64,000 nucleotides of DNA from Klebsiella phage fENko-Kae01. The notes below the pieces were generated by a model. The model was not told where the DNA came from. It did not search any database and saw only the letters and a program-made list of their open reading frames with translations. Positions 38,221 through 52,223 of this stretch are shown in pieces (within the stretch, counting starts at the first letter, position 1; each line of letters opens with the position of its first letter). The DNA is taken from the sequence record OR228459.1; one strand, 5' to 3'. The position numbers and the translations under genes were made by a program.

Positions 38221-38307
38221 AATCCCCTCATAATTCTTGTAATTATATTATATTTAACCAAAAAAAGCCAGTACACCATTTTTAGTACTACACGAAATTT
38301 AAGTTTA

Positions 38308-39492
38308 CTATAATTTCCACGGTAATTGCATTAGAGATTGAAAATATCCATTGAAAATATCATTTGTTAAACAAGTTGGGTTCGTGTTTTTCCCGCAGCC
38401 CAAAATAATATTTTCATCCCTGCATATATATCCATTATAATAATTACATATAATAATATCATGTTCTTTGCAAATTATATCAGGAACTATAGTATATGTA
38501 CCTATATATTGGGGTGATGTTCCTAAACCCAACGCATAATTATAATTATTTCCAGTACTATATAATCTATTATTAATATCAACATACATGGAAACGCCAC
38601 TATGCATTGTATATACTTTACCAAAATAATTATAATCATTACATGAATTCGGTAATTCCACGGTGATCATATTACCTGATGTATTTTGATTCGTATTCGT
38701 TGTATTTCCATCACCGAATGCCCCGGCTGAATTCGTACCAATACAATATGCTGTTGACTTAGTATACGCAATCGTATTGTTAGTAGACATCCTAACCTGA
38801 AGTATAGGTTCACTTACAGTACTAAACATTCGATGAAAACGAACAATATTCTCATTATTAATGCCACCCTCAGTACTGGTTTTTATACAATATGATGCAT
38901 TCCTACCAGCACCCCACACTGTCCCGTCTTTTTTAATATATACACTATTTTGTGAAGTAATAGAACAATCTTCAACATCAGTATCTATCAATGTCAATGG
39001 GAAATATCCAGTACTACCAACACCTAATTCACCATAACGATTAAGTCCAATACCATAAAGTTCACCATTGTTTAATAATACAAATGTATTATTCTCAGGA
39101 ACTATTTTTTTAATATCTGATATATTAATAGAACTAAACAAGTTAGAGATATCAGTAAATGTCGTATACCCTGATGCTGTACCACTGTTATTCTGAATTG
39201 CTCGATCGCCTGATAAAAATATTTTATCATCATGCGAAATATATATAGTACTTCCAATCCCATTAGTACATAACTTAATATCCGATTCTGGTATTTTAAA
39301 TAAAGATCTAGGTCTATCTGATTTATGACCCAACCCCAATTGACCATATGCGTTATACCCACCAACATAGGCATCGCCGGTGCTTAATAAAATACTATAA
39401 GAAACATTAGAACTAAAACTTAAATTCATTTGTTTGATATATGGTATTTCTCTTATATTACCGTATGTCAATATCCTAGCAAATGGTATCAT
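38308..39492 (-). CDS. MIPF-family paralog 9: RCC1-like repeat protein (394 aa)
   Basis: N-terminus MIPFARILTYGN. GYNAYGQLGLGH. Preceded on the minus strand by the conserved leader. Confidence 0.65.
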   Translation of the reverse strand: MIPFARILTYGNIREIPYIKQMNLSFSSNVSYSILLSTGDAYVGGYNAYGQLGLGHKSDRPRSLFKIPESDIKLCTNGIGSTIYISHDDKIFLSGDRAIQNNSGTASGYTTFTDISNLFSSINISDIKKIVPENNTFVLLNNGELYGIGLNRYGELGVGSTGYFPLTLIDTDVEDCSITSQNSVYIKKDGTVWGAGRNASYCIKTSTEGGINNENIVRFHRMFSTVSEPILQVRMSTNNTIAYTKSTAYCIGTNSAGAFGDGNTTNTNQNTSGNMITVELPNSCNDYNYFGKVYTMHSGVSMYVDINNRLYSTGNNYNYALGLGTSPQYIGTYTIVPDIICKEHDIIICNYYNGYICRDENIILGCGKNTNPTCLTNDIFNGYFQSLMQLPWKL

Positions 39493-39529
39493 ACATTCTC
39501 CTTATTTGTACAATTATATTATATTTAAT

Positions 39530-39566
39530 TAAAAATGACAGTACTTATGTAGTACTGTCATTTTTC
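39530..39566 (-). terminator. intra-array terminator hairpin
   Basis: aaaaaTGACAGTACTtatgtAGTACTGTCAttttt. Perfect 10-bp stem with T-tracts on both strands. Confidence 0.6.
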
Positions 39567-39569
39567 TTA

Positions 39570-40373
39570 TTATGTAGTTGGGCCTACATTACTTGTGGGA
39601 AATCTACGACCACCTCCCCAAATAATACGCACACCACCCAATCCTTCATCAGTACTTGTATTACCAGCACCACGATATATGGTTGTACCCGGAACCGCAC
39701 TACCTGAACTACCACGATAATGTGCAGCAGAACCACTTCCAGATTCACCCATACCAAATAAACCAACTGCACCACCTGAAGCAGCTATACCGCCCCCTCC
39801 GCCAGCACCACCAGCACCAGAACTGCCAGATGAACTACTTGCACCATTACCACCATTACCTTCATAGCCACCAGCACCACCTGAGCCGCCTCTTTCATAT
39901 CGATAAGTACCAGAAGTCGGCCCACTACCACCTCTACCACCATCGCCGCCGCCATCGTTTATTTGACTGGCATTCTTTCCACCAACACCTCCTGACCCTC
40001 CGGCACCACTAGACATTGTAGTACCATAACTGCCCATTTTTCCACCACCAGCAATGCAAGCATTTGAGTTATTTTGTAATACATAAGAATTTCCACCATC
40101 AGAATTGGCTGTATAACCATTTACACCAACTGTAACTGATAGTACTTCACCGGGAGTTACCACTACATCATTCCTATAACTTAAACCACCGCCACCGCCA
40201 CCACCACCAGTACTTCCAGTGCCAACCCTACCACCACCGCCAACACATAATATACATATAGATTCAACATCATCTGGTACTATAAACTCAAATGTTCCAG
40301 ATTGAACCCAGACCATTTCCCCTTTTGGTGGTAATTTATTTCCGTATGTTAGCATTTTTGTAAATGGTATCAC
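39570..40373 (-). CDS. MIPF-family paralog 10: glycine-rich protein (267 aa, GTG start)
   Basis: N-terminus (V/M)IPFTKMLTYGN followed by long GGxGG/GSG tracts. The opposite-strand ORFs 39584..39775 and 39656..40012 (His/Gln-rich) are mirror artefacts. Confidence 0.55.
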   Translation of the reverse strand: MIPFTKMLTYGNKLPPKGEMVWVQSGTFEFIVPDDVESICILCVGGGGRVGTGSTGGGGGGGGLSYRNDVVVTPGEVLSVTVGVNGYTANSDGGNSYVLQNNSNACIAGGGKMGSYGTTMSSGAGGSGGVGGKNASQINDGGGDGGRGGSGPTSGTYRYERGGSGGAGGYEGNGGNGASSSSGSSGAGGAGGGGGIAASGGAVGLFGMGESGSGSAAHYRGSSGSAVPGTTIYRGAGNTSTDEGLGGVRIIWGGGRRFPTSNVGPTT

Positions 40374-40383
40374 GATTGTCTCC

Positions 40384-41517
40384 TTAATTAATTCTTATTT
40401 TAGTAAAAATATTATTTTCTGAACCATCAGATTTTTTTCCCGGTAAAACACTAATACTTCCAACTCCCCAAATATCATTTCCATCAAATATTAAAGAATA
40501 AAAAGTTCCACCCAAAATCTGTACTTTTTTGTTATCTTGTACTGTTGTAAATTTAGGAATTTCTTTAAAAATAGAGGATGCCTGTGGTAAGCCACTATAT
40601 TCAACTAGACCCGTTGCATAAAATGTACCGTTAGTACCTAAAAATATATTTCTGTTTGGTGTACCCTTTAACTTTCCTCCAATAACCATTTGGGATGGCA
40701 TGTTTATTTTGGTTGACCAAGATTTAAGCTGAGTATTTGAATTTACACCGTCACCTAATATCCCATTAATTTGCCAACCAGAACCTGCTATTGTCGTTGG
40801 TGTCCAATATGATAATGTACTAGCACGTGTTGCCATAAAGGATGATGTGCCACCATTAAGTATTATCCCCCACGTATACTTATTTTCTGAATTACCAGAA
40901 CCAAATTGACCATAAGGCTGTTGTCCCGCTCCATACAAATATACGGAAGTGGGTGAAATTCCACGAGCTATCATAGAATAGTCTCCAACATATAATTCTT
41001 GATGGTAAGTAGTACCAACTCGCGTAAATGAACTTATCCGATTTGTAGATCCTAGACCACACGCCCCATTACTATTCCAACCTCTTGAATATAATTGATT
41101 GTCGATATCAATATATCCCATAGTGTATAAACCAATATCTAATTCTTTCACCGAATCATAAGATGGCATAGTATTAGTTATATCATCACCTTCTATTGGA
41201 GATAATCCACCAGTAGTATTCTTGGTTCCTAATACATCATAGTTTCCATTAAAAATCCATTTTCCATCCTTAGTATATATTAATGTACTCTTAGAACCAC
41301 ACCAAACATCTTCTGCATTTCTATCCAGTACTACAAACTCGTAGTACTGATATGTTGCTGTGCAATCCTTTAACTGATTAGAATTGTTATAACCAATACC
41401 ATATAGTAATCCACTTTCCATTAATACCACATAATGTGTATCACCACATGATATTTTCTTTATATTACTTGGTACAACTACATTACCATATCCCAATATC
41501 CTCGCAAATGGTATCAT
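40384..41517 (-). CDS. MIPF-family paralog 11: RCC1-like repeat protein (377 aa)
   Basis: Track ORF 40384..41535 trimmed to the MIPFARILGYGN start. Confidence 0.65.
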   Translation of the reverse strand: MIPFARILGYGNVVVPSNIKKISCGDTHYVVLMESGLLYGIGYNNSNQLKDCTATYQYYEFVVLDRNAEDVWCGSKSTLIYTKDGKWIFNGNYDVLGTKNTTGGLSPIEGDDITNTMPSYDSVKELDIGLYTMGYIDIDNQLYSRGWNSNGACGLGSTNRISSFTRVGTTYHQELYVGDYSMIARGISPTSVYLYGAGQQPYGQFGSGNSENKYTWGIILNGGTSSFMATRASTLSYWTPTTIAGSGWQINGILGDGVNSNTQLKSWSTKINMPSQMVIGGKLKGTPNRNIFLGTNGTFYATGLVEYSGLPQASSIFKEIPKFTTVQDNKKVQILGGTFYSLIFDGNDIWGVGSISVLPGKKSDGSENNIFTKIRIN

Positions 41518-41559
41518 ATATCCCCCATAATTCATGTAATTATACTATATTTAATTAAA

Positions 41560-41590
41560 AAAGGCTAGTACGCACTTGTACTAGCCATCT
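41560..41590 (-). terminator. intra-array terminator hairpin (minus-strand T-tract)
   Basis: GGCTAGTACgcactTGTACTAGCC followed on the minus strand by TTTTTTAATTAA, then the conserved leader. Confidence 0.5.
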
Positions 41591-41591
41591 C

Positions 41592-42737
41592 TCAATTAAT
41601 AGATTTAATATCAACTTCTGCACCCAATGACAATTTAGTAAAGGTAGTTGTATCTTGACTTAAGGAAGGAAAAGAAGAACCACTATACCAAATTGTATTT
41701 CTAGTTATTATCATAGTATTAGTTGAATTAGCACATATTCCAATTATATCATTAAGTACTAACTCATCTGGCAAATTAATAATTGTCTTATTTTGGGGCG
41801 TAACCTTATTACCTAAACCCAATTGTCCACTTGTATTATTTCCAGTACAATATAAATCATTATTCACACTAAAAAATGTACCATAACGTGTTAATATAGA
41901 ATATGGATGATTGAAAAACTTATTAGCACCAACCATACTATACAAACCCGTAATACCAATTTGGGCTGTACTTCCATTACCCATACAATAATAAGTACCT
42001 AATCCCGCTCCATATATCCAACTTTGATTAATAGACATAACCGCCGATGGCATTAAACTCCATGAAATGTTAGAAGTTCTAGGAGCAGAAGCAACTTGTA
42101 CTTCATTCGGCGTAGGTGATGTTCCAAGCATCGATGGTGCATTACCAAAACCACAGATAACATCATATGCACTGAACCATTTTCGATAAGCCGTTATGCC
42201 ATTATAAAGCTGTACATCTTTAACCCTAGAAACCATTAAAGTAGGTACTGATAACATTCCATTTAAGGCAACCTTATTACTTAAACTATAAGTACTATTC
42301 CTACCAACCATATATAAATCACCATATGTGCGATCAGTCGAATTCGGTATTAAATAAGCCATGTTGTTTAAAGTAGCTGTAATGTTATAAGCATCACTAG
42401 GAATAGTAAAGGGAAGTTTGGTAAAACTATATACATTACTATTAAGCCCTAAACATGTGCGGTTGCCAGATATATAGTACTGACCATCATTTCCTTGAAT
42501 GATCACACTCATATCAGTAGCACATACCACTTTTTTAATATTACCTGCAATCAATCTCCATTCAGATAATGGTGCAGAATCACCAGTACCCAATTGACCC
42601 TGACTATTATCCCCTAATGCAAATAAATTACCAATAGAATCTATATATAATGCAAAATAATTCAATCCACAGAATTGAACTATTTTTGCATCCGGTAATG
42701 TGTTCCCATAATCCAATATCCTAGCAAACGGTATCAT
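41592..42737 (-). CDS. MIPF-family paralog 12: RCC1-like repeat protein (381 aa)
   Basis: N-terminus MIPFARILDYGN. GDNSQGQLGTGD. Confidence 0.65.
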   Translation of the reverse strand: MIPFARILDYGNTLPDAKIVQFCGLNYFALYIDSIGNLFALGDNSQGQLGTGDSAPLSEWRLIAGNIKKVVCATDMSVIIQGNDGQYYISGNRTCLGLNSNVYSFTKLPFTIPSDAYNITATLNNMAYLIPNSTDRTYGDLYMVGRNSTYSLSNKVALNGMLSVPTLMVSRVKDVQLYNGITAYRKWFSAYDVICGFGNAPSMLGTSPTPNEVQVASAPRTSNISWSLMPSAVMSINQSWIYGAGLGTYYCMGNGSTAQIGITGLYSMVGANKFFNHPYSILTRYGTFFSVNNDLYCTGNNTSGQLGLGNKVTPQNKTIINLPDELVLNDIIGICANSTNTMIITRNTIWYSGSSFPSLSQDTTTFTKLSLGAEVDIKSIN

Positions 42738-43933
42738 ATATTATCCTCTCTTAAATTAAAATCTGTTATTAATGTAAAATTCTCAGATAATGGTGTACTT
42801 AATGGCGTAAATCCAACACCAGCACTTGTTGTTAACCCCGAACCCTTTGCATATAGTAACGGGGCCATATTCAATGCACAAAGAGCAAACATCCTCGTAT
42901 TTGTATAAGCCCTATATGTGTTCCCATTGCCCTGTACTGTATATCTTGGCGTGAATGTGAGAAGACGATCTCCACCACCTCCATCCATATAACCCGCAAA
43001 ATATAGTACACCATTAGTATCAGATAGGATATTCGTCCAATACGTCTGGATGGATGTCCCAAATAGTGATAATAAATTACCCGGCTTAAATGCTAATTGT
43101 GCAGTATATAACCGAACATTCGCATCTACACTAATATTACCTATCCCCCACGCACCAGCATAATTTCTTCCTGAACAATAATATTTTCCGTCCGTCCTAA
43201 AAAGCATAAAATGTGTTTGACTTATACGAAATGCATTATATTCATAATCTACCTCAGATGTAGCCTCAGAAAATAATTGTGTCCATGTAGTATATACAGT
43301 ACTTTGAGATGTAGTCTGCATCTGTTGATAAGTGTTATCTCCAGTACCCCAAAATGTTCCATCCAAATCCTGATATACTCCATTAATATTCGTTATCCAA
43401 CAATCCTGTACTGACGATTTTAATAGTACTGGCGTGAAACTAGGAGTTTTATTAGCACTACCAAAGTAACCATAATCGTTTTTTCCATGTGCATATAATG
43501 AACCATCATTCAACAAAATATAAACTGTGTTGTAATTCATTGTTATTTTCTTAATCTTTAATATATCAAAATACGTAGAATAAAATGAAGTCTTATCAAC
43601 CCATGTGGCTGTATTACTAGTACCATCATATATCGTCTGACGACCTGTATAAAATAATTTATCATCATTCGATAATACAAACGTTCCATATGTACTACCC
43701 CATGCAGTCTTTACATCCCTCTTAACTAAATGCATCTCACCATAGTAATTTACACCAACTGGAAAACCCAAAACATATCCATAATTCTTATCACAGGTTC
43801 CCCATAACTCTCCATTATTCAAATGCATCCACATCGTCGCGGCGGTATTATCCGAATCCAAAAAGAAGTCAATCACTTTTGCGGGTGCTGCTACCTTATT
43901 CCCATACTCTAATATCCTAGTAAATGGTATCAT
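42734..43933 (-). CDS. MIPF-family paralog 13: beta-propeller-like protein (399 aa)
   Basis: N-terminus MIPFTRILEYGN. ATGA overlap with paralog 12. First gene of the array, reading from the 43.9-45.6 kb control region. Confidence 0.6.
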   Translation of the reverse strand: MIPFTRILEYGNKVAAPAKVIDFFLDSDNTAATMWMHLNNGELWGTCDKNYGYVLGFPVGVNYYGEMHLVKRDVKTAWGSTYGTFVLSNDDKLFYTGRQTIYDGTSNTATWVDKTSFYSTYFDILKIKKITMNYNTVYILLNDGSLYAHGKNDYGYFGSANKTPSFTPVLLKSSVQDCWITNINGVYQDLDGTFWGTGDNTYQQMQTTSQSTVYTTWTQLFSEATSEVDYEYNAFRISQTHFMLFRTDGKYYCSGRNYAGAWGIGNISVDANVRLYTAQLAFKPGNLLSLFGTSIQTYWTNILSDTNGVLYFAGYMDGGGGDRLLTFTPRYTVQGNGNTYRAYTNTRMFALCALNMAPLLYAKGSGLTTSAGVGFTPLSTPLSENFTLITDFNLREDNI

Positions 43934-44747
43934 ATTATCCCCCTATAATTATCATTATATCATATTTACCCATATATATACCCTTTTTAATATATTAGAA
44001 AACTCTATAGTACTACCATATATACACCATATAAACGCATAGAAAGCCATAAGAGAAGACTTCTCCAATATTATACACAGGTGTAGCTCCTGTAGATAGC
44101 GGCTCTTAGACGCTTATCGAAAGGATTCAACACCTGTAAAAATACCCAATTGTTAATATGTACAGTACTTTTACTTTTAAAATTATTCAGGAAATAGTTA
44201 CACATTGAACTATATTAGTAAGTACTAATGGAAGCTACTATTCAGTACTTACCCCCTTCCGCTATATCTTCTCTGTATAAGAAGATAGAAAAGTACTAAA
44301 AAGTACTACACACCTTTTTTACAAAGTACCATTCAACCTTTTTCCCGAAAGTACTCCATCCTAAATCCCAATCCTAGAAATTTTGGAGTACCCTCCAACC
44401 TCCAGCTAAAATCTCAAAAGTACTCCATCCTAAATCTGAATCAACAAAATGCTGGACAACCATTCAGTACTAAATTATAATGTTATTAGTGGGAATCTAC
44501 CCTCGTATATATGATGCTGTATATAATATCAGTACTGAACGAATTAACAGTATTAGTAGATATACCAGTACTGAAAATATTTTGAAAATAGTTGTTGACA
44601 CCGTGGGAATATTTTGACATAATACACGGCATGGAAGATGTGGTGAGTTATCATCCTGACTTCTGTCTTGTTTATGAAAATAGATTGAAACAGTACTAAC
44701 ACGTTTATAACAACGTAACAGTACTGATATGAAGTGAAAAGTATTAC

Positions 44748-44767
44748 CCACCAGCTTAAGCTGGTGG
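44748..44767. repeat. perfect 20-bp palindrome carrying Chi in both orientations (CCACCAGCTTAAGCTGGTGG)
   Basis: Read directly. Contains 5'-GCTGGTGG-3' and its reverse complement. Confidence 0.8.
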
Positions 44768-44949
44768 ATGTGGTTAGAATAATAAGAAGGGGAATCCCCA
44801 ATCATACGATGAACTATATTCAATTCTACCAGTACTGCGAATAGTTACTCCACAAGAATGAGAAGACTGTTGTAGTACTGAACTTTTTATGACGAGAAAA
44901 TTTGAATAGATTTTGGGTGTACTTATCCTGTACTCTGGACGGATTAAGG

Positions 44950-45065
44950 GCGTGTTTGATTCTCATTCGCATATAAGAATGATAAACTTTCTCAACATGA
45001 GAATGGTTCTCAGTTGCAAATAAGAATAGTTCTCAAATGAGAATAATAATGATTATCGTTTTCAG
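44950..45065. promoter_or_regulatory. cluster of Fur-box-like / GAGAAT-ATTCTC palindromic repeats
   Basis: aagaatgataaac, tgagaatggttctca, aagaatagttctcaaatgagaataataatgattatcg. The last resembles the Fur box GATAATGATAATCATTATC. Confidence 0.35.
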
Positions 45066-45269
45066 TACTAGACTAATTTTTCCATTGGCTAGCCTACCGC
45101 GACGGAATATAATATTCCGGCAGTATCACGAATCAGCTTGTTTTAAATCTGCCGTTATTATCTCAATATCTGGGTAGAATGTCAAGCTAATATTTTAAAA
45201 AATAAATGCTTGACACGTTGGCAGTACTTTGCTATTATATACACATAGCAAGAACAATGCTCAAGCCCA

Positions 45270-45362
45270 CAGGGTGCGGAGGTGTATTCGTTAAAAGCTA
45301 AATGCGAATGATTATCATTTCGCTCATATGATACATTTCCGCACCCTCTAGGGTCTCCGCTT
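45270..45362. repeat. inverted pair of the ACCCACAGGGTGC element flanking a Fur-box-like palindrome
   Basis: CCACAGGGTGCGGAGG ... gcgAATGATTATCATTtcg ... TTCCGCACCCTCTAGGG. Confidence 0.5.
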
Positions 45363-45476
45363 TCTCGCGTCTATATAGTAATTATACGGTAATGCGGTTT
45401 ATGCGTCAAGTACTTTTTTAAAGAAAATCGAAAATAATTTAGTACTATATGTATATAAGGAAGGAAAAAGAATTTT

Positions 45477-45515
45477 CAAAAAGTACTTGCATTCTAATTT
45501 AACCTATTGCATAAT
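45477..45515 (+). promoter_or_regulatory. early-type promoter (AAAAAGTACTTGCAT...CATAAT)
   Basis: aaaaagtacttgcattctaatttaacctattgcataat, upstream of 45560. Confidence 0.45.
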
Positions 45516-45559
45516 AGCTACATCGAAACGAGATACACAAACACATTAAGGAAAACGAT

Positions 45560-45793
45560 ATGATTCGCATTGTTCGCATTAATTACTCTACCGGTGAAGC
45601 TGATAAAGTAGCGGTTATTGTATCAGAAAAGAATGATGATCATCTACACAATACGCTGATGCGTTTTGTTAGTGCGGTTGACCGTTGGGCTAGTATTGAG
45701 TACTTAGAAACGTTTAAAGTCCCTGCCGTCCAGCTTAACGGGCATGATATTAAAGCAATTTGGAATGCTGACGAAATGATCGCGAACATGTAA
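45560..45793 (+). CDS. hypothetical small protein (77 aa)
   Basis: AAGGAAAA RBS. Confidence 0.55.
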   Translation: MIRIVRINYSTGEADKVAVIVSEKNDDHLHNTLMRFVSAVDRWASIEYLETFKVPAVQLNGHDIKAIWNADEMIANM

Positions 45794-45884
45794 TTATTTC
45801 AAGTACTATCAAAATTTACTTGACTTACTTTGATAGTACTTTATAATACTTACATACAAACGAAGTACTATTAAGGAAAGCATT

Positions 45885-46016
45885 ATGATCACTATCGAGA
45901 AAATCCGTTTAGCAGTAGAAGAACTGATCGCGGCTGGCTGGATTGTCGCAGAAAGTGAAGAAGAAATTAACATTGTAGTAAATGGTATGTATTCAGTTAT
46001 GACAAACGTGGAGTAA
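45885..46016 (+). CDS. small hypothetical protein (43 aa, not in ORF track)
   Basis: Own promoter cassette (ttgact...tttataatacttacatacaaacgaagtactattaaggaaag) plus a TAAGGAAA RBS, identical in arrangement to the next gene. Confidence 0.5.
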   Translation: MITIEKIRLAVEELIAAGWIVAESEEEINIVVNGMYSVMTNVE

Positions 46017-46098
46017 GTTAGTATTAAAAGTACTTGCATTTACTTAGCGAGTACTTTATAATACTTACATACAAACGAAACACTATTAAGGAAATATC

Positions 46099-46716
46099 AT
46101 GGAAAACATTATCGACGTTATCAAGTCTGTTTCTTATGCTGATCTGAATGAAGCACAAAAAGAAAAAGCTATTGAGATCATGCGAGAGTTAGAGAATCAA
46201 GAAATGACTCCGTTTTGGTCTGTAGATATTACTGATCAATGGAAAGAAACTTTAGACACTGAATACGGCATTACTGATGCAGTGATTTATTGGTCTGGTT
46301 TTTGTTCACAAGGTGACGGTGCATCGATTAGTACTGAATACTATATTGATATTGAGAAGTTTTTACGTAAATGTAAAGCGTGGTCAAAATTCCGTGTACT
46401 GCACAAAATTATTGACCGTGAAGAAATTCATGCTAAGATTGATCGTAGCTCAAGCCGTTACAATCATGAAAACACTGTAAGCGGTAGCGTAGAGCTTGAT
46501 TATAACATTGATTGGACGGCGAAGCAGGAAAGCGAAGCTGAACGCTTAGAAGAATTTTTGACCGAAACTATTCGCGAACTTTCTTGTAAGCTGTATAAAG
46601 AACTTGATAATGAGAATGATTATCAAAACAGCGATGATGCCCTTTGGTCTACCATTGAAGCAAATGAATATGATTTTGCTGTAAACTCAAACGGCGACGT
46701 TTTGCGTATCGCCTAA
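46099..46716 (+). CDS. hypothetical acidic protein (205 aa)
   Basis: Duplicate of the upstream promoter cassette. TAAGGAAA RBS. Confidence 0.6.
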   Translation: MENIIDVIKSVSYADLNEAQKEKAIEIMRELENQEMTPFWSVDITDQWKETLDTEYGITDAVIYWSGFCSQGDGASISTEYYIDIEKFLRKCKAWSKFRVLHKIIDREEIHAKIDRSSSRYNHENTVSGSVELDYNIDWTAKQESEAERLEEFLTETIRELSCKLYKELDNENDYQNSDDALWSTIEANEYDFAVNSNGDVLRIA

Positions 46717-46733
46717 AGTACTGACATACTGTA

Positions 46734-46764
46734 AAACGCTCTATAACGCATTGTAGGGCGTTTT
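46734..46764 (+). terminator. putative rho-independent terminator
   Basis: AACGC...GCGTTTT hairpin. Confidence 0.4.
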
Positions 46765-47008
46765 AAGGAATAGCAGTATCATTTATCATCTTAATTAATT
46801 AAACGGCGTAGACGGCGATTTATGAGCAAACAAGATATATTGAAAGGGGATGTTTTATACTGGTTAGATCCTGATGATGGGATCTGTTCTGGATGGGTAA
46901 CAGTATTAGACGTTAATACTACAGTACTGGTAAAAGGTGCAACGGCAGAATTTGAAGTGCTACCCGAAGAACTTTATTCGCATGAAGTTTAAAAAGTACT
47001 TGCAAAGT

Positions 47009-47066
47009 AAATCTAAAAGCGTATAATGATTTGCATAGGGGGAAACATCTTCCCCCCACTATTAAG
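47009..47066 (+). promoter_or_regulatory. promoter (TTGCAA-16-TATAAT) + conserved 5'-leader hairpin type A (GGGGGAAacatcTTCCCCC)
   Basis: Member of a 10-copy leader family. Confidence 0.6.
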
Positions 47067-47076
47067 AGAAACGATT

Positions 47077-47517
47077 ATGACTATCTACTATCTGACTTAT
47101 AAAACCGCCGACAATGTAACTGATGCTAATGTGACCGCAAACACGGTACAGGAAGCAATGGAAGTACTGAAAGCGGAACTACCTGATATTCAGATCGTTT
47201 GTGTAGTTGATACCGAAACGAATCTTAAAACTATTATTGACCACTATGATTATTTCCGTGGGCGTAAGTTACAGGACTGGTATCATATCGAAATAGAAAC
47301 ACGTGAACTACCAGAAGAACAACAGCACTTTGAGCAGGGTACTAGCATTTGGGTTACTACCGATAAACGCATATATTTCTGTTCACGCATACACGTTAAC
47401 AAGCGTGTTAAAATTGGGGCAGATTCATATAGTGGACTGTTTACAAATAGTAACCTACTAAATGACAAGTACATAAAAGTTTATGAGCGTTTTGGAACTG
47501 ATATTTACGCTTCATAA
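47077..47517 (+). CDS. hypothetical protein (146 aa)
   Basis: Track ORF 47026..47517 trimmed to ATG 47077, which follows an AAGAGAAA RBS. The upstream part of the track ORF is the leader element. Confidence 0.55.
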   Translation: MTIYYLTYKTADNVTDANVTANTVQEAMEVLKAELPDIQIVCVVDTETNLKTIIDHYDYFRGRKLQDWYHIEIETRELPEEQQHFEQGTSIWVTTDKRIYFCSRIHVNKRVKIGADSYSGLFTNSNLLNDKYIKVYERFGTDIYAS

Positions 47518-47525
47518 TATCACAA

Positions 47526-47560
47526 AGGGGAAGCAATTGCTTCCCTGTTTATTTGTACAG
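47526..47560 (+). terminator. rho-independent terminator (GGGAAGCaattGCTTCCC + tgtttattt)
   Basis: Perfect palindromic stem with a T-rich tail. A near-copy lies at 55214. Confidence 0.6.
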
Positions 47561-47817
47561 TACTATAATCTATAGATACAATACCGCACCCCGTGGGCTA
47601 ATGTGTTTTCATGGGTATTATTATGCCAGTACTACAAACATTTGTCAATCATTATTTTCAATTAATTTAAACGCACTGTAACACTGTATAAGGCGTTTTG
47701 TTATTAAGGTAAGCAAACGTATTGAGTACTATCTAAAAGGCCGTTGTGGGCTTGCTGGTGGCGTTGTGTTGTAGTATTGAAATATAAGGAAAATATAAAA
47801 AAGGCTGTCAATGATTA

Positions 47818-47940
47818 AAAAAGTACTTGACGGATTGATTTAGTACTGTCATAATGTATCACATAGAGCGGCGGGATGGATAAACATTCCTAAGTAGACA
47901 GCCAGTAAGTCATACGAAAGACTGGTGCCGAACTGAAAGA
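47818..47940 (+). ncRNA. orphan promoter + ~80-nt structured ORF-free transcript (candidate sRNA)
   Basis: AAAAAGTACTTGACGG-18-TCATAAT at 47818-47858. Downstream region has the hairpin CCAGTaagtcatacgaaagaCTGG and no ORF, then runs into the next promoter at 47949. Confidence 0.3.
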
Positions 47941-48046
47941 AAGATTGAAAAGAGTTTTAAAAAGTACTTGACAAGCTGGTGGGAAATTGAGATAATGACC
48001 CCGTAGACAGCAAACAACCTAATTAAACTTTAAGAGGAAATATACA

Positions 48047-48634
48047 ATGACTACTACTACTGAAAATGCACGTGTTACCCTGAAATCTGCACTGGAAGCT
48101 GGCGACGTTAAAACCCTTGCTGTTATCCTTGCGAAAGTTGGTCATGATAAAGACGGCGTATCTAAATTGGGCTTGACTTTCTCACTGGCGGTTAAGGAAG
48201 CGAAGGAAGTACTTAAAGAGCAAGCCAAAGCAGCAGAAGAAGCTGCACGTCAGGCAGCAGAACGCCGCGAAGCTAAAAAGGCTGCACGTCAAGCCGAAGA
48301 AGAAAAGCGTCAGGCTGAGATCAAGGCAGAAAAAGAAAATATGCTCAAGTTCCTCATGGATACGGTTAACGGTATGGGCTTAGACCTTGAGGCGGCAGAA
48401 GCGGCAGCAGAAGCGGCAATTGTTAAAAAGTACGGCGATGTTAACAAAGTACCTAAGTATACTTTTAACCGTGTAGCGGTGATTGTAGACGGTAAAGAAT
48501 ACAACATGCCAACTTCTGGGAACATGGTAGAAGTACTTAAAAATGCACTTGAAGCAAGCGGTAAATCGCGTAAAGAGTTTATCATCGAACACGCGAAAGA
48601 CAAGGCAGAAGCGGAAGCGGCATTCGCTGAATAA
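48047..48634 (+). CDS. H-NS-like DNA-binding protein (195 aa)
   Basis: C-terminus KYTFNRVAVIVDGKEYNMPTSGNMVEVLKNALEASGKSRKEFIIEH aligns to the E. coli H-NS C-terminal domain ([40 protein letters not shown]). N-terminal part is coiled-coil with an Ala/Glu/Lys-rich linker. Strong promoter and RBS. Confidence 0.5.
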   Translation: MTTTTENARVTLKSALEAGDVKTLAVILAKVGHDKDGVSKLGLTFSLAVKEAKEVLKEQAKAAEEAARQAAERREAKKAARQAEEEKRQAEIKAEKENMLKFLMDTVNGMGLDLEAAEAAAEAAIVKKYGDVNKVPKYTFNRVAVIVDGKEYNMPTSGNMVEVLKNALEASGKSRKEFIIEHAKDKAEAEAAFAE

Positions 48635-48651
48635 TAACAGTACTAAACTAT

Positions 48652-48680
48652 AGGCGGCCTAAGTGGTCGCCTTTTTTTAA
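48652..48680 (+). terminator. rho-independent terminator
   Basis: GGCGGCCtaagtgGTCGCC + ttttttt. Confidence 0.55.
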
Positions 48681-48692
48681 TTGGGGGATTAT

Positions 48693-48953
48693 ATGGCTGT
48701 AGGATTCGCGAAAGACGGGGCAGAACAAGACGAGATTTTAGCGGTCATAAACGCCGCTGTAAGCCACGCAAGGAATCAGATAGGGGATAGTACTATTACA
48801 AGTAGAACGCACTGCCTAGACTGTTCTAGGACTATTCCTGAGCGTAGACGGGAAGTAGTAAAGGGTGTTAAGTACTGCGTAGAGTGTCAGGCTGATCATG
48901 ATAGTATATTTAAAAGAGATCCGCGTAATTGTTGGCACAGATCTATGAGATAG
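48693..48953 (+). CDS. TraR/DksA-family C4 zinc-finger protein (86 aa)
   Basis: CLDCSRTIPERRREVVKGVKYCVECQ, i.e. CxxC-17-CxxC with the IPE.RR motif typical of TraR/DksA. Track ORF 48681 trimmed to ATG 48693, which follows a GGGGGA RBS. Confidence 0.6.
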   Translation: MAVGFAKDGAEQDEILAVINAAVSHARNQIGDSTITSRTHCLDCSRTIPERRREVVKGVKYCVECQADHDSIFKRDPRNCWHRSMR

Positions 48954-48957
48954 TACT

Positions 48958-49013
48958 TGACATACTTTCTGATTAAAGTATAATGATTTGCATAGAGGGA
49001 AACATCTTCCTTC
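48958..49013 (+). promoter_or_regulatory. promoter + leader hairpin type A (GAGGGAAacatcTTCCTTC)
   Basis: Leader family copy. Confidence 0.5.
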
Positions 49014-49034
49014 ACTAATTAAGGAAATAGAATC

Positions 49035-49307
49035 ATGCGTACACCAATGACCCGCGAAGAAATACACACAGTACTGACAACTAACATTCAGGACTGGAAG
49101 AAATACGCAGATATTAACGAAGCTCAAGACTTGAACAATGAGCTAGATGGTGAAGATCTGGACGTAATTTGTTCCCCTGAGTTTTATGATGATATTCATT
49201 CCGATGATGATGTTTGGAATGTACTGGAAAAGCATTTCCTCGATACTGATTTAAGTATCTACTCGCGTGATACTTTTATTTTAATTCACAACATTTATAA
49301 CAAATAA
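49035..49307 (+). CDS. hypothetical acidic small protein (90 aa)
   Basis: TAAGGAAA RBS. Confidence 0.55.
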   Translation: MRTPMTREEIHTVLTTNIQDWKKYADINEAQDLNNELDGEDLDVICSPEFYDDIHSDDDVWNVLEKHFLDTDLSIYSRDTFILIHNIYNK

Positions 49308-49310
49308 TTG

Positions 49311-49367
49311 TTGACTTACTTATATAGTACTGTATAATGGTTTGCATAGGGGGAAACATCTTCCCCC
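49311..49367 (+). promoter_or_regulatory. promoter (TTGACT-16-TATAAT) + leader hairpin type A
   Basis: Leader family copy. Confidence 0.6.
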
Positions 49368-49386
49368 ATCAATTAAGGAAAAGAAA

Positions 49387-49596
49387 ATGACTCGATACAC
49401 TGTAGAAGTACGTACTACTAAAAACATTGCTACTGATGTGATTCGTTATTATAAGATGGTTTGTGGTGTTGCTCGCCGTATTAGTAAAGCGGATTATGAC
49501 AAGCTGGATCGCGAAGCTGATGGTATGGATTGTTTTTATACAGTAAACACAAAAACGCATACAAAGCAATTTAAAACATTGTCTTATTACATGTAA
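49387..49596 (+). CDS. hypothetical small protein (69 aa)
   Basis: Track ORF 49342..49596 trimmed to ATG 49387, which follows a TAAGGAAAAG RBS. Confidence 0.55.
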   Translation: MTRYTVEVRTTKNIATDVIRYYKMVCGVARRISKADYDKLDREADGMDCFYTVNTKTHTKQFKTLSYYM

Positions 49597-49757
49597 AAAG
49601 TTTTACTCCAGTACTTGACAATAGATGCGAGTACTGGCATAATAACTTTATTGAAACGAAATACTATTAAGGAAATATCATGGCTAATCTCATTGTTCGA
49701 TTGTATGAAGATTGTTTCTACTTTTAGTATTGTGGGAAACCTATATCCGTTAAAGAG

Positions 49758-50069
49758 ATGATCGCATCGGGCTATATGTTATCTAAGCATGATCACACTG
49801 GATTCATGGCTGAAATGGTTGCGGCTAGTTATAAGTTTGGTGAAGAATGGGAAGCACAATATTTTCCGGCTGTCAATGCAATGATTAAGCGGTTGGCAGA
49901 ACACACTGAGTTTATGGAATTTTGGACTGTTTTAAAAATGGTTGACGTGAATCAGAATGGGGAAACGTGTCAGCCATACGCACATTTTGACGCTGGGGAA
50001 GATATTAGCACAATTTGGAAATGGTTGGAAGATAAATTTACAACAATTAAAATTGCAGATTACTTGTAA
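49758..50069 (+). CDS. hypothetical protein (103 aa); possible longer form interrupted by in-frame TAG
   Basis: ORF with an AAAGAG RBS. An in-frame ATG at 49680 with a perfect TAAGGAAA RBS is separated from it by a TAG at 49725-49727. Confidence 0.45.
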   Translation: MIASGYMLSKHDHTGFMAEMVAASYKFGEEWEAQYFPAVNAMIKRLAEHTEFMEFWTVLKMVDVNQNGETCQPYAHFDAGEDISTIWKWLEDKFTTIKIADYL

Positions 50070-50075
50070 AAGTAC

Positions 50076-50132
50076 TTGCATTACTATCTGAAAAGCGTAT
50101 AATGGTTTGCATAGGGGGAAACATCTTCCCCC
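50076..50132 (+). promoter_or_regulatory. promoter (TTGCAT-16-TATAAT) + leader hairpin type A
   Basis: Leader family copy. Confidence 0.6.
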
Positions 50133-50153
50133 ACTAACTAAGAGAAGAATATC

Positions 50154-50534
50154 ATGGCTAATCAAATCACTCCAGCACAGACCTTCAATAAATTCAGTAC
50201 TGAAATCGTATTGAAAGAGTATGTGCCAGATTATGGTTGGACTGATGCATGTGTATGCACTGATGTAGCAGATGCAAAGCAACGCATTAAAGATTATCGT
50301 GCGGAGGGTTTACAGGTTAAAACTGCCCGTCGCCGTGTACTTAACAAAGATGCTTTCTTATGTCAAGCTCTTTTAAACTTCTGCCGTGACTACTATCGCC
50401 GTACTGGTGGATTATGGCCTAATGAGGTTGAAGTACTGAAATCTAACGGTAAAGTAAAATTTACCTTGACTTTAAAAGAAATTGAGGAAGTACTTGGTGA
50501 TGATTGTTTTTTAGTAACTTCACAGCCAGCATAA
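50154..50534 (+). CDS. hypothetical protein (126 aa)
   Basis: AAGAGAAG RBS. Confidence 0.55.
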   Translation: MANQITPAQTFNKFSTEIVLKEYVPDYGWTDACVCTDVADAKQRIKDYRAEGLQVKTARRRVLNKDAFLCQALLNFCRDYYRRTGGLWPNEVEVLKSNGKVKFTLTLKEIEEVLGDDCFLVTSQPA

Positions 50535-50543
50535 AAAAGTACT

Positions 50544-50576
50544 TGACACATAACGGGGATATGATACAATATCCCC
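50544..50576 (+). promoter_or_regulatory. promoter with -10-centred palindrome (GGGGATATgatacaATATCCCC)
   Basis: TTGACA, then an inverted repeat enclosing the -10. Confidence 0.5.
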
Positions 50577-50603
50577 ATATTGAAAAGTAATGGAAGTACT
50601 GAA

Positions 50604-50795
50604 ATGAATTATCAAAAGGTTAGCAAGCGAGTAGTTGAACTCTCTAAGAAAGCACGTAAAGAGTATACCTTAGAACGTTCAATTAACAACTATCATTTAA
50701 AGCAAGGTGATAAGTTTATTGTTATTGACGAACCTTTGGAAATCGTGTATATTGTAGTTAATGCGATGATTCGTGATAAAACGAGGATTAAGTAA
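50604..50795 (+). CDS. hypothetical small protein (63 aa)
   Basis: Track ORF 50580 (TTG start) trimmed to ATG 50604. Confidence 0.45.
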   Translation: MNYQKVSKRVVELSKKARKEYTLERSINNYHLKQGDKFIVIDEPLEIVYIVVNAMIRDKTRIK

Positions 50796-51050
50796 ATGCG
50801 TACATTAGACCAACTTATTGACCCTAATACGTCAGCACGTCGATCAATGGTTACTATCGGCGGTAATGGTAAACAACACTGGAGTGGTTACATTTGCTTT
50901 ATTGTTGGTGGAAAAATGTATGAGCGGGTAGTATATCACAAAGAGATTAATTATATACTATTCCGTAAAGAAGTCATAGCAGTCGATCCTACCGCCCTAA
51001 AACCGATTGCAGGGGCATGGAACAAAGAATCGCTGTACCTTACAGCTTAA
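50796..51050 (+). CDS. hypothetical small protein (84 aa)
   Basis: Start coupled to the upstream stop (TAAATG). AGGAT RBS. Confidence 0.5.
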   Translation: MRTLDQLIDPNTSARRSMVTIGGNGKQHWSGYICFIVGGKMYERVVYHKEINYILFRKEVIAVDPTALKPIAGAWNKESLYLTA

Positions 51051-51099
51051 CCAATAAAAGGCCGCTACGTGCGGCCTATCGCGTTCTAGAGGGTATATT

Positions 51100-51700: not shown

Positions 51701-51764
51701 AAGTCTTGCATTACTTTCTGAATAACGTATAATACTTACATCAACCACTGAGAGGAAAGAAACA

Positions 51765-52136: not shown

Positions 52137-52143
52137 AAAGTAC

Positions 52144-52205: not shown

Positions 52206-52223
52206 ATATTAAGGAAAAGTATC

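Follow-up and report, generated by a model that had tools for sequence, protein, structure and literature searches.

Positions 43934–45559 of the DNA analysed here (the window: a 64,000-nucleotide stretch of Klebsiella phage fENko-Kae01, sequence record OR228459.1) probably mark, with a rough probability of three in four, the junction between the unique right-hand part of the genome and the left boundary of a direct terminal repeat (DTR) of ∼21.3 kb, followed by the gene-free leader of that repeat. The window belongs to a Rak2-like jumbo phage, and the region is 99.4–99.5% identical to phages 7t3, SE_PL, PHA46 and Munch (7t3 and Munch being Salmonella phages). Since base 1 of the Munch record corresponds to window position 44265, the region splits into 331 bp of unique DNA and a 1.3 kb ORF-free DTR leader; a position at a terminal-repeat boundary accounts both for the absence of genes and for the conservation. 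Rak2-like jumbo phages are studied and used for therapy against Salmonella, E. coli and Klebsiella, and their cis-acting DNA is essentially uncharted. All six features listed in an earlier note on this region were found in place, each above chance. The features of the region are as follows.

43934–44264, no strand assigned: unique-side spacer, from the start codon of the last RCC1-like 'MIPF' gene to the DTR boundary, with four AGTACT hexamers.
44077–44138, no strand assigned: stem-loop ACAGGTGT...ACACCTGT with inner helices; −24.5 (+) and −25.6 (−) kcal/mol, z = −4.3 and −3.5.
44265–44288, + strand: predicted physical left terminus of the packaged DNA and start of the ∼21.3 kb DTR, TATCTTCTCTGTATAAGAAGATAG; base 1 of Munch.
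44343–44397 and 44412–44466, + strand: end-proximal conserved element in two tandem copies, core AAAGTACTCCATCCTAAATC...AAATTTTGGAGTACCC.
44453–44481, + strand: putative sigma-70 promoter TGGACA-17-TATAAT with AGTACT in the spacer; 11/12, estimated start ∼44488.
44595–44623, + strand: putative sigma-70 promoter TTGACA-17-CATAAT with TG; 11/12, estimated start ∼44630.
44748–44767, no strand assigned: inverted Chi pair CCACCAGC-TTAA-GCTGGTGG, exact octamers in the perfect 20 bp palindrome CCACCAGCTTAAGCTGGTGG.
44957–45063, no strand assigned: run of GAGAAT/AAGAAT...TTCTC half-palindromes, ending in overlapping Fur-like 19-mers (45039–45057 and 45045–45063).
45085–45113, + strand: putative sigma-70 promoter TTGGCT-17-TATAAT; 10/12, with the −10 within the 17 bp palindrome CGGAATATAATATTCCG.
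45157–45185, − strand: putative sigma-70 promoter TTGACA-17-GATAAT with TG; 11/12, back-to-back with the promoter at 45210.
45210–45238, + strand: putative 'P1-type' promoter TTGACA-17-TATTAT with AGTACT in the spacer; 11/12, estimated start ∼45245, a conserved arm lying downstream.
45265–45352, no strand assigned: composite palindromic module with left arm GCCCACAGGGTGCGGAGG, central box GCGAATGATTATCATTTCG and right arm CCGCACCCTCTAGGG.
45381–45409, − strand: putative promoter TTGACG-17-TATAAT with AGTACT fused to the −35 (AGTACTTGACG); 11/12, estimated start ∼45374.
45482–45515, + strand: putative promoter of the first DTR gene, AGTAC-TTGCAT-17-CATAAT, read from the sequence; followed by the RBS AAGGAA and an ATG at 45560.

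The virion chromosome is predicted to begin at 44265, a placement supported by a published prediction and by comparison of related records. The Munch genome was reopened at the PhageTerm-predicted boundary of a 21,296 bp direct terminal repeat (PMC8273493), a call made at 12.4-fold coverage and combined here with a comparative alignment, in which the final base of the Munch record falls at 44264. Base 1 of Serratia phage BF, of pEa_SNUABM_50 and of Pectobacterium phage CBB was placed at the same spot to within ∼10 bp (collinear landmark offsets of 44256–44271). The records of BF and pEa_SNUABM_50 start with TATCTTCTCC, that of Munch with TATCTTCTCT and that of CBB with TATCCGTTCC, all having TATC(T/C)... 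in common, a likeness judged by eye as MAFFT was unreliable over the first ∼40 nt of the five termini, and with the start of the BF record possibly set by homology to CBB. According to the CBB paper (PMC5259590), the DTR of that phage was derived from read depth and pulsed-field gels. The sequence at the predicted end opens with the 8 bp inverted repeat TATCTTCT/AGAAGATA. A common 12-mer, GATTGGACTATG, lies 36 nt before the right DTR boundary in Munch (21296) and 35 nt before it in vB_Ec-M-J (21525). The records of vB_Ec-M-J and Muenster open with a different sequence (AGT...), and the start of vB_Ec-M-J aligns ∼110 bp further away from the conserved end-proximal element. A scan of IMG/VR with the 15-mer AAATTTTGGAGTACC for contigs ending at the terminus was non-specific: it returned over 120 unrelated contigs, and the single Rak2-like contig among its hits does not end at the homologous site. 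Genome architecture also shifts at the DTR boundaries when gene size, spacers, AGTACT and Chi are compared: the interior of the repeat contains small genes, ∼80 bp spacers, AGTACT at 6.2 per kb and frequent Chi, and the 2.2 kb examined beyond the right boundary contains neither AGTACT nor Chi. A packaging signal was among the functions that the earlier note had considered for this region, and the published Munch boundary together with the homologous record starts of BF, pEa_SNUABM_50 and CBB supports the reading as a packaging terminus.

In all related records examined that begin at this boundary, a leader of 1.3–1.8 kb without credible genes comes after the first base. The start of the first gene lies at 1297 in Munch, 1304 in Muenster, 1760 in vB_Ec-M-J, 1786 in BF, 1784 in pEa_SNUABM_50 and 1427 in CBB, the last value disregarding a small annotated ORF at 20–187 that we deem doubtful. 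Islands within the leader are collinear with vB_Ec-M-J and partly with BF and CBB and are more conserved than the neighbouring genes, the adjacent coding DNA having given no alignment. The most end-proximal of the features noted earlier inside the leader, two direct 20 bp repeats, consists of exact copies of AAAGTACTCCATCCTAAATC at 44348–44367 and 44417–44436; the extended copies span 55 nt with 75% identity at a spacing of 69. This element is 93% identical to vB_Ec-M-J 205–247 and 75–77% identical to BF and CBB at ∼105–168, and its matches in all three lie less than 250 bp from the first base of the genome. The end, together with the conserved tandem element 80–200 bp inside it, may be where the packaging nuclease makes the left end, the element being a candidate recognition element for end formation that the terminase would recognise. 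A defined predicted cut site of this kind could serve genome-end engineering. On the unique side of the boundary, the 8 bp inverted repeat ACAGGTGT/ACACCTGT is located at 44078–44085 and 44131–44138; the stem-loop has no U-tract behind it. The tRNA-like appearance of 44078–44138 is not supported, ARAGORN having given no tRNA or tmRNA.

The distribution of Chi sites adds to the picture of a terminal repeat. The perfect 20 bp palindrome described earlier lies exactly at 44748–44767 and carries Chi on both strands, with an exact GCTGGTGG at 44760 (+) and the complementary octamer at 44748; the distance of the palindrome from the left end is 484 bp. It can form a hairpin with a 10 bp stem (z = −3.5 on the + strand and −5.2 on the − strand), scored as terminator-like on the − strand (44769–44746). 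Both octamers are kept in the E. coli phage vB_Ec-M-J (588–607), where the spacer is ACAA and the flanks have diverged. The whole window contains 13 top-strand and six bottom-strand Chi sites, against 0.2 expected per strand, and 12 of the 13 top-strand sites are in its DTR part, which contains just two on the bottom strand (∼0.07 expected per strand). These two are 484 and 7013 bp from the left end, with equivalents at 588 and 7402 in vB_Ec-M-J, a phage with nine top-strand and two bottom-strand Chi sites inside the 21.5 kb DTR and none in the next 28.5 kb. The DTR fragments of Muenster and CBB have three top-strand and no bottom-strand sites each. The flanks differ at every site, and four Chi are located in promoter spacers. 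No Chi was found within the first 3–4 kb of BF, CBB or Muenster, and the end-proximal pair is therefore not universal in the family.

The orientation rule of RecBCD for Chi is established biochemistry. Chi in the DTR part, with the same pattern in vB_Ec-M-J, is above chance and oriented for entry from a DNA end; the first half of the palindromic pair has the orientation recognisable to RecBCD entering at the left end. We know of no earlier description of a back-to-back Chi pair 0.5 kb from an end. The pair would stop RecBCD entering at the left end after ∼0.5 kb, and the top-strand DTR sites, the last of which is ∼0.4 kb from the right end, would do likewise for entry there. The RecA-loaded tails of the two repeat copies could then recombine into circles or concatemers, as proposed for P1. 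In P1, as here, exact Chi sites are far above chance and concentrated in terminally repeated virion DNA (Subramaniam and Smith), their orientation fits RecBCD entry from the ends and their proposed role is RecBCD/RecA recombination between the repeats; however, P1 is temperate and is packaged by the headful with variable ends, whereas the present phage is virulent and its ends are predicted to be fixed. The placement at the terminal-repeat boundary yields the prediction that these virulent phages depend on host RecBCD–Chi recombination between their repeats.

Early control is the other reading supported for this region, along with the packaging terminus. Near-consensus sigma-70 promoters are concentrated in it, with five sites at 11/12 against 0.15 expected. 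The early-promoter cluster bears out part of the regulatory-switch idea put forward in the earlier note; a 'master switch' is not established. The cluster would use host sigma-70 to start early transcription, some of its promoters having AGTACT boxes joined to the −35 and immediately before the −10; three to four of the promoters would read right toward ∼50 small DTR genes and two would read left. The CBB paper describes RpoD-like promoters with an UP-like element (PMC5259590). Several of the sites are conserved or symmetrically arranged. The stretch 45077–45185 is 70% identical to vB_Ec-M-J 936–1042, and an inverted repeat (45180–45196/45199–45215) renders the 45157 (−) and 45210 (+) promoters mirror images. 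A transcript from the former is predicted to extend ∼400 nt leftward to the Chi-palindrome hairpin. The segment 45224–45287 is 87–93% identical to multi-copy elements of Klebsiella, Pectobacterium, Cronobacter and Erwinia relatives, and the 45381–45409 (−) promoter is convergent with that at 45210 (+). The promoter of the first gene is 82% identical to vB_Ec-M-J 1656–1694, directly upstream of the first gene of that phage, and its architecture, AGTACTTG(A/C)(A/C), was found at 16 further DTR sites. This set of strong predicted early promoters may be useful as a handle. For the leftward RCC1-like array no promoter was recognisable, and the T4 late promoter TATAAATA had no meaningful match near the region.

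The region is comparable to known terminal regions of non-permuted virulent phages, such as those of T5, the left end of T7 with promoters A1–A3 and the terminal redundancy of SPO1. For Rak2-like phages, we know of no demonstration of two-step injection or of transcription-driven DNA entry. As in T5, T7 and SPO1, a long exact direct repeat is full of small early genes on host sigma-70 promoters. The left terminal repeat of T5 has a conserved 1.66 kb untranslated region of repeats and palindromes (bioRxiv 10.1101/866236). That region lies at the inner (right) edge of the repeat and has paired DnaA boxes (bioRxiv 10.1101/866236), unlike the present leader, which is at the outer (left) boundary and has no DnaA boxes. 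The leader has no sequence similarity to the terminal regions compared.

The hexamer AGTACT links the leader to the rest of the repeat. The 'AGTACT forest' of the earlier note holds as a count, with 20 exact copies in 43934–45559 against ∼0.45 expected, but not as a specific mark of this region: the hexamer is found throughout the window (248 against 17.6 expected, 14-fold) and also marks the phage family, its density being highest in the terminal repeat. Other intergenic DNA already has 7.7 copies per kb, so the local excess is just ∼1.6-fold over other spacers. AGTACT is part of the DTR early promoters, and a recognisable promoter context was seen for only four of the 20 sites in the region. 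A literature search combining AGTACT with 'jumbo phage' found no report, and excerpts of the CBB paper (PMC5259590) mention neither an AGTACT nor a Chi feature. AGTACT is a candidate operator for a factor timing early transcription. A fuller proposal, possible but tentative, is that the hexamer is a dedicated phage-wide signal for a protein, probably phage-encoded and dimeric, which would switch the whole early programme on or off through the paired boxes at −40/−36 and −19/−14 of DTR promoters and through the (T)CAGTACTG(A) palindromes that are crowded in the leader. At the same time the repeat, rich in Chi and with a properly oriented site no more than ∼0.5 kb from either end, would bring in host RecBCD/RecA so that the repeats are joined. 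If this were true, the leader would serve as a joint hub for end protection and timing, of a type so far undescribed in jumbo phages.

Two putative convergent promoters flank the composite module, and the inverted pair of elements noted earlier was confirmed as its arms (45266–45287 and 45331–45352; 22 nt, 82% complementary) around the 13 bp palindrome AATGATTATCATT (45307–45319). The module folds with −45.5 (+) and −48.1 (−) kcal/mol (z = −5.3 and −5.4), and a second copy of the whole convergent module is present at 51487–51671. The motif CCCAYRGGGTG occurs ten times against 1.2 expected, nine of the ten in the DTR. With its Fur-box-like centre between two arms, the module is probably a protein-binding site or an RNA hairpin that would limit or time transcription.

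The second possibility bears on a doubtful reading, itself compatible with the junction and leader described above, in which the region would chiefly yield small non-coding RNAs that regulate the early genes or the leftward RCC1-like array. The candidates would be a ∼130 nt sense/antisense pair from the promoters at 45210 and 45409 and the ∼400 nt leftward RNA from 45185 to the Chi hairpin. Strong predicted promoters without a downstream ORF fit this reading, as do hairpins that are very stable on both strands, the terminator-like − strand hairpin at 44769–44746 and the CCC-loop-GGG stem, which is kept while its loop varies in sequence and length (3–4 nt) among the copies, as expected of a hairpin rather than of a duplex site with fixed spacing. 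However, an alignment of ten hairpin regions from eight phages, in which arms and box are conserved, has zero compensatory changes: RNAalifold retained only the invariant GGGTGC/GCACCC stem, with one pair showing a double change and a covariation term of −0.01. As the long hairpin has no compensatory substitutions, the alignment offers no evidence of a conserved RNA fold and an RNA role is unproven. There is also no clear intrinsic terminator behind the + strand hairpin, and Rfam gave no match at the gathering score in the whole window; a permissive scan of 42000–47000, with a cutoff of E = 1, gave only three chance-level hits (E of 0.21–0.82), all outside 43934–45559.

A switch that responds to iron or Fur was raised as a possibility in the earlier note. 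In such a reading, host Fur would control early transcription by binding the Fur-like boxes (45039–45063 and 45304–45322, with further sites at 46606 and 51573). The likeness to Fur boxes is statistically real. The run of GAGAAT/ATTCTC palindromes is present and ends in two 19-mers, GAGAATAATAATGATTATC (45039) and AATAATGATTATCGTTTTC (45045), that match the Fur consensus at 16/19 each, a score that 200 shuffles of the region never reached; in the module, the central box (45304–45322) matches GATAATGATAATCATTATC at 14/19. Window sites with at most three mismatches to this consensus number four against 0.07 expected, all four in the DTR. The layout is that of a Fur box (two direct hexamers, one base, one inverted hexamer), the leader of Muenster has five sites at three mismatches, and relatives from Klebsiella, Serratia, Erwinia and Yersinia retain the hairpin module's central box as GAGAATGA(T/G)AATCATT. 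Conservation is uneven, however: boxes are present in Muenster, K64-1, BF, Hallingskeid and Yen9-04 but absent from vB_Ec-M-J and CBB, the E. coli and Pectobacterium relatives, where the best sites in the vB_Ec-M-J DTR and the CBB leader have 5–7 mismatches. Moreover, the boxes, which are putative sites read from sequence, overlap no −35 or −10, being 22–46 bp upstream of the 45085 −35 or at about +50 to +60 from both convergent starts, and the site at 46606 is inside a gene. The recurrent change of T to G at hexamer position 3 points to some other binder, which may be encoded by the phage, and regulation by host Fur is unlikely.

It is similarly improbable that the leader is mostly recombination debris, left by mobile promoter–terminator cassettes (PeSL-like, after the promoter-early stem-loops of T4-type phages) that have lost their genes and holding only the end and the first-gene promoter. 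The unit of promoter plus arm is multi-copy here and in relatives (2–4 places per record), occurs in both orientations and resembles the compound promoter–terminator elements of T4-type phages (PMC4122927), and the inverted pair could have come from two head-to-head insertions. Like a PeSL, it is a multi-copy intergenic sigma-70 early promoter with a stem-loop, set between small variable early genes (PMC4122927). The DTR spacers at 53325, 58288, 60428 and 61396 have a terminator hairpin with TTGACT in its loop followed by TATTAT (TATTATATA); the 45210 promoter has no terminator hairpin, and its −10 and arm are common to these PeSL-like units. The AGTACT boxes and the arm ACCCAYRGGGTGC...ATCCGTCTATT, ∼20–28 nt past the −10, are not described for PeSLs. 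Against debris stands the order of the islands (end, tandem element, Chi pair, 45077–45185 block, arm, first-gene promoter), which is the same in vB_Ec-M-J and, in part, in BF and CBB, members of genera between which the flanking genes can no longer be aligned; in addition, the complete convergent module, central box included, is found again at 51.5 kb and in other genera.

A replication origin, also suggested in the earlier note, is very improbable. In this reading, divergent and convergent promoters together with palindromes would melt the DNA or supply primers for its replication, perhaps by way of an R-loop like those of T4 oriF and oriG. The back-to-back promoters at 45185 (−) and 45210 (+), the conserved non-coding architecture and a cumulative GC-skew minimum at 44–45 kb would suit it, but the sign of the skew follows gene orientation exactly (− strand genes at 29.7–43.9 kb, + strand elsewhere), 43500–46000 holds a single 8/9 DnaA-box match against 24 window-wide (the background rate), no IHF consensus was found in the region, GC per 100 bp is 0.23–0.41 with no long AT-rich block and its minimum (0.23–0.25) only at the two edges of the region, and the sole multi-copy direct repeat has two copies, with no iteron array and no repeat family of three or more long copies.

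The absence of a credible ORF, as claimed in the earlier note, agrees with the curated Munch annotation, which has no gene here. All 12 ORFs of at least 30 aa in the region score as non-coding, with codon-usage log-odds of −0.28 to +0.12 against 0.14–0.39 in nearly all DTR genes. A 108 aa ORF on the − strand (44497–44823) was rejected as a gene, its tblastn matches being confined to four sister phages and its codon score non-coding. Because the codon-usage score puts all of the small ORFs in the non-coding range, their annotation in 7t3 was likewise rejected. The genes to the left do begin with M-I-P-F, as had been stated, and were identified as encoding RCC1-repeat proteins, the last of them at 42734–43933 on the − strand. 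Two annotation corrections follow, namely of nine small 'hypothetical proteins' in 7t3 and of the label 'DNA condensation protein' on the RCC1-repeat genes.

The 1,626-bp region at 43934–45559 is 99.4–99.5% identical to its counterparts in the Salmonella jumbo phages 7t3, SE_PL, PHA46 and Munch, and short islands of it match RaK2, K64-1 and Muenster (Klebsiella), GAP32 (Cronobacter) and jumbo phages of Erwinia and Escherichia, which together are the Rak2-like group. Genes run rightward over 1–29.7 kb, leftward over 29.7–43.9 kb and rightward again from 45,560. The leftward block (29720–43933, − strand) is a tandem array of paralogues of about 380–400 residues, each with an M-I-P-F start (13 in Munch); their products are RCC1-repeat proteins, and their label in Munch, 'DNA condensation protein', was carried over from the InterPro RCC1 entry. 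Neither a near-consensus sigma-70 promoter (28–44.4 kb) nor an exact T4-late motif was found for this array. The rightward block to its left (1–28000, + strand) carries fifteen near-consensus sigma-70 promoters, in line with the account of phage CBB (PMC5259590), which speaks of an 'early region upstream of the terminal repeat'. The view of the region as gene-free is borne out by codon usage: all 12 ORFs of at least 30 residues score like antisense ORFs, and the longest (108 residues) has relatives in the four sister phages and nowhere else. In the curated record of Munch the first 1,296 bp are free of annotated genes; the automatic annotation of 7t3 makes nine calls of 31–84 residues.

The predicted boundary of the direct terminal repeat in Munch has already been published (PMC8273493), and the first base of the Munch record corresponds to window position 44265 and its last to 44264. 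The records of BF (Serratia) and pEa_SNUABM_50 (Erwinia) open with TATCTTCTCC, that of Munch with TATCTTCTCT and that of CBB (Pectobacterium), whose repeat was put at 22,456 bp because read depth doubled there and from pulsed-field electrophoresis (PMC5259590), with TATCCGTTCC; placed from conserved landmarks further in, base 1 of BF and CBB falls at 44256–44271. Muenster (PhageTerm repeat 1–20,030) and vB_Ec-M-J (E. coli; annotated repeat 1–21,525) share a related but different start, AGT...GAAGTC. The right boundary is homologous in two genera: it lies 36 nt (Munch, 21,296) or 35 nt (vB_Ec-M-J, 21,525) past a common GATTGGACTATG, in both cases within the last wide spacer, with tightly packed genes beyond. 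Each determined boundary, as read in the sequence, adjoins a short inverted repeat. Because of the ends of the Munch record, the agreeing records and the conserved right boundary, we read 44265 as the left physical end, with 43934–44264 as the last stretch of unique DNA, 44265–45559 as the leader of the repeat and the remainder of the window up to 64,000 as repeat interior.

All related records examined that open at the repeat boundary begin with a leader lacking credible genes. The first gene starts at 1297 in Munch, 1304 in Muenster, 1760 in vB_Ec-M-J, 1786 in BF, 1784 in pEa_SNUABM_50 and 1427 in CBB, a small annotated ORF (20–187) of the last being set aside as doubtful. Alignment of the leader with vB_Ec-M-J is limited to short islands whose order is kept, and none of the coding DNA adjacent to the leader aligned with this phage.

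Islands shared by the leader and vB_Ec-M-J (window; vB_Ec-M-J; identity)
44350–44392; 205–247; 93%: tandem end-proximal element
44719–44769; 559–609; 81%: Chi palindrome
45077–45185; 936–1042; 70%: promoter block
45337–45388; 1312–1363; 94%: right arm of the hairpin module
45466–45503; 1656–1694; 82%: first-gene promoter

BF and CBB, too, have a recognisable form of the tandem element, in which AAATTTTGGAGTACCC hardly varies. Published prediction and comparison together support a terminal-repeat boundary at 44265, a conserved gene-free leader, and enrichment of Chi, sigma-70 promoters, AGTACT and an arm element (CCCAYRGGGTG). In kind, the region belongs with the terminal control regions of phages whose repeats are long and exact.

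The six sequence features listed in the earlier note were all found, where it placed them or a few bases away. The direct repeat is a 20-mer, AAAGTACTCCATCCTAAATC, at 44348 and 44417, lying within a longer repeat of 55 nt whose copies are 75% identical; the inverted repeat ACAGGTGT/ACACCTGT (44078/44131) folds into a stem of −24.5 kcal/mol (z = −4.3); and CCACCAGCTTAAGCTGGTGG is a perfect palindrome at 44748–44767. The GAGAAT/TTCTC run (44957–45063) ends with two overlapping 19-mers, each matching the Fur consensus at 16/19, a match seen in none of 200 shuffles of the region. Inverted arms at 45266–45287 and 45331–45352 flank AATGATTATCATT (fold of −45.5 kcal/mol, z = −5.3). The hexamer AGTACT, for which about 20 sites had been claimed, occurs exactly 20 times in the region but is not local to it (248 in the window versus 17.6 expected). 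Five matches to TTGACA-N16-18-TATAAT at 11/12 also lie in the region (0.15 expected; maximum 2 in 300 simulations), along with two weaker promoters.

Predicted promoters in the region
44453, + strand: rightward sigma-70 promoter, 11/12
44595, + strand: rightward sigma-70 promoter, 11/12
45085, + strand: weaker rightward promoter, 10/12
45185, − strand: leftward sigma-70 promoter, 11/12
45210, + strand: rightward sigma-70 promoter, 11/12
45409, − strand: leftward sigma-70 promoter, 11/12
45487, + strand: first-gene promoter, TTGCAT-17-CATAAT, a weaker match from direct sequence reading

In spacers of the repeat, AGTACT is fused to the −35 (AGTAC-TTGACA) at 16 rightward sites and directly precedes the −10 (AGTACT-k-TATAAT) at 12, the two boxes of repeat promoters being 20–23 bp apart; within the region, the first arrangement is seen at 45482 and 45409 and the second at 44466 and 45223. 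The other sites of the region are mostly (T)CAGTACTG(A) palindromes, and the vB_Ec-M-J, Muenster, BF and CBB leaders are likewise rich in them (8.4–10.8 AGTACT per kb). AGTACT density is 12.3 per kb in the region versus 7.7 in other intergenic DNA, and 6.2 per kb in the repeat versus 2.85 outside; Munch has 13 sites in the last 2.3 kb of its repeat versus none in the following 2.2 kb. Within genes the hexamer is 3–4-fold above synonymous-codon shuffles in all three reading frames. Its sites, from 477 to 63,9xx and densest over 44265–64000, make it the lone outlier of the 64 palindromic hexamers in the window (11.4-fold, runner-up 2.6-fold; expected count 17.6–21.7), and six others (AAGCTT, ACGCGT, AGCGCT, AGGCCT, CAGCTG and CCATGG) are at zero, a pattern that suggests strong restriction-site avoidance plus one positively selected signal. 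A hypothetical AGTACT-reading protein would be the simplest explanation of the excess.

The window has 13 top-strand and six bottom-strand copies of the Chi octamer GCTGGTGG, with about 0.2 expected per strand, and 12 of the 13 top-strand sites fall within the 19.7 kb of repeat (44265–64000). Two bottom-strand sites fall inside the repeat, one at 44748 (484 bp from the left end) and one at 51277. Three of the four outside it lie in one glycine-rich gene (39570–40355, − strand; 'PE-PGRS family protein' in 7t3), on the coding strand at 39808, 39868 and 40045, where they form part of GGTGCTGGTGG repeats and probably arise as a side effect of what the gene encodes. Munch has more top-strand sites at 20,279 and 20,913 (the latter 383 bp short of the right end), whereas the 2.2 kb beyond the right boundary lack them. 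The first 50 kb of vB_Ec-M-J hold nine top-strand and two bottom-strand sites (588 and 7402), all within its 21.5-kb repeat, with none in the next 28.5 kb; the repeat fragments of Muenster and CBB each hold three top-strand and no bottom-strand sites. Chi sites of the window have unrelated flanks, half are non-coding and four occupy free 17-bp promoter spacers (47975, 53456, 61104 and 62985); their enrichment is thus explained neither by duplication of a module nor by codon usage. Both octamers of the Chi palindrome are identical in the window and vB_Ec-M-J, whereas the spacer (TTAA versus ACAA) and flanks differ. According to established RecBCD biochemistry, 5'-GCTGGTGG-3' is recognised on the strand whose 3' end is the entry point; top-strand Chi are accordingly oriented for RecBCD that comes in from the right end, and the first half of the palindrome for RecBCD that comes in from the left. 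Phage P1 has 50 Chi sites, which are concentrated in or around its terminal redundancy and have been proposed to drive RecBCD-dependent circularisation. Chi orientation in the present repeat mirrors that interpretation, and by analogy RecBCD may act on this phage.

The 'ACCCACAGGGTGC element' of the earlier note is present, not as a single element but as one of the arm family (CCCAYRGGGTG), of which the window has 10 copies versus 1.2 expected, nine of them in the repeat. Forward copies lie 20–28 nt past the −10 of a 'P1-type' promoter, a promoter class of the repeat, in which the −35 is often located in the loop of the terminator hairpin just before it and is followed by TATTATATA; these promoter and hairpin units resemble the PeSL compound promoter–terminator cassettes of T4-type phages (PMC4122927). 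In the region, two promoter-plus-arm units meet head-on (45210 rightward, 45409 leftward) across GCGAATGATTATCATTTCG, an architecture repeated in a second complete convergent module at 51487–51671 (P1-type promoter, arm ACCCATAGGGTGC, box GAGAATGATAATCATTTAC, inverted arm, leftward promoter). In an alignment of 10 module sequences from eight phages, the arms are invariant, the central box AATGAGAATGA(T/G)AATCATT is conserved and compensatory changes are absent; the small CCC...GGG stem is kept, with a loop varying in sequence and length. In Muenster, a reverse-oriented arm element (GCACCCAGTGGGC, within 1–40) sits just 19 nt away from where the left end is predicted, and the arm family may for this reason be linked to end formation too.

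Matches to the Fur consensus reach 14–16/19 in the central boxes and in the run at 45039–45063, which may bind Fur as suggested: all four sites of the window with at most three mismatches (0.07 expected) are in the repeat, and the Muenster leader has five of that grade. However, vB_Ec-M-J and CBB lack such sites, none of the boxes overlaps a promoter hexamer, and common to the boxes is a T-to-G change from the Fur hexamers; a binder other than Fur is at least as likely. The best match in the window (46606–46624, GATAATGAGAATGATTATC, 17/19) lies not in a spacer but inside the 3' end of gene 46099–46716. A near-perfect palindromic hairpin 3' of this gene (46721–46776) is probably a bidirectional terminator; its Rfam 'rox1' hits, on both strands at E 0.2–0.5, are at chance level and not meaningful.

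A replication origin of the transcription-primed type, an unlikely reading, would be compatible with the sequence, and the skew inflection sought as a sign of one is present as a cumulative GC-skew minimum at 44–45 kb, but this minimum coincides with the coding-strand switch, and a DnaA-box cluster, an IHF site, an iteron array and an extended AT-rich block were not found in the region. 

In the favoured mechanism, the left end and adjacent tandem element would be the target of the packaging nuclease, and RecBCD, otherwise a danger to the phage, would be converted by Chi near both ends into a recombinase joining the repeats. The promoter cluster would start early transcription of the approximately 50 small repeat genes, with the convergent module and AGTACT boxes serving as binding sites that time or limit it. 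The T7 left-end promoter cluster and the SPO1 terminal redundancy are similar to the region. Its nearest analogue is the conserved 1.66-kb untranslated repeat/palindrome region at the repeat boundary of T5 (bioRxiv 10.1101/866236). In the literature searched, we found no description of the conserved internal anatomy, inverted Chi pair, repeat-restricted Chi bias, AGTACT promoter architecture or convergent Fur-like module.

The two leftward promoters of the region might produce non-coding RNAs or, from the right-hand copy of the repeat, read into the RCC1-like array. Leftward P1-type promoter-plus-arm units also occur at 47587–47648 and 55280–55341 (− strand), against the surrounding gene direction and pointing to the bidirectional terminator of the upstream gene; they could give rise to antisense or non-coding RNAs of about 100 nt.
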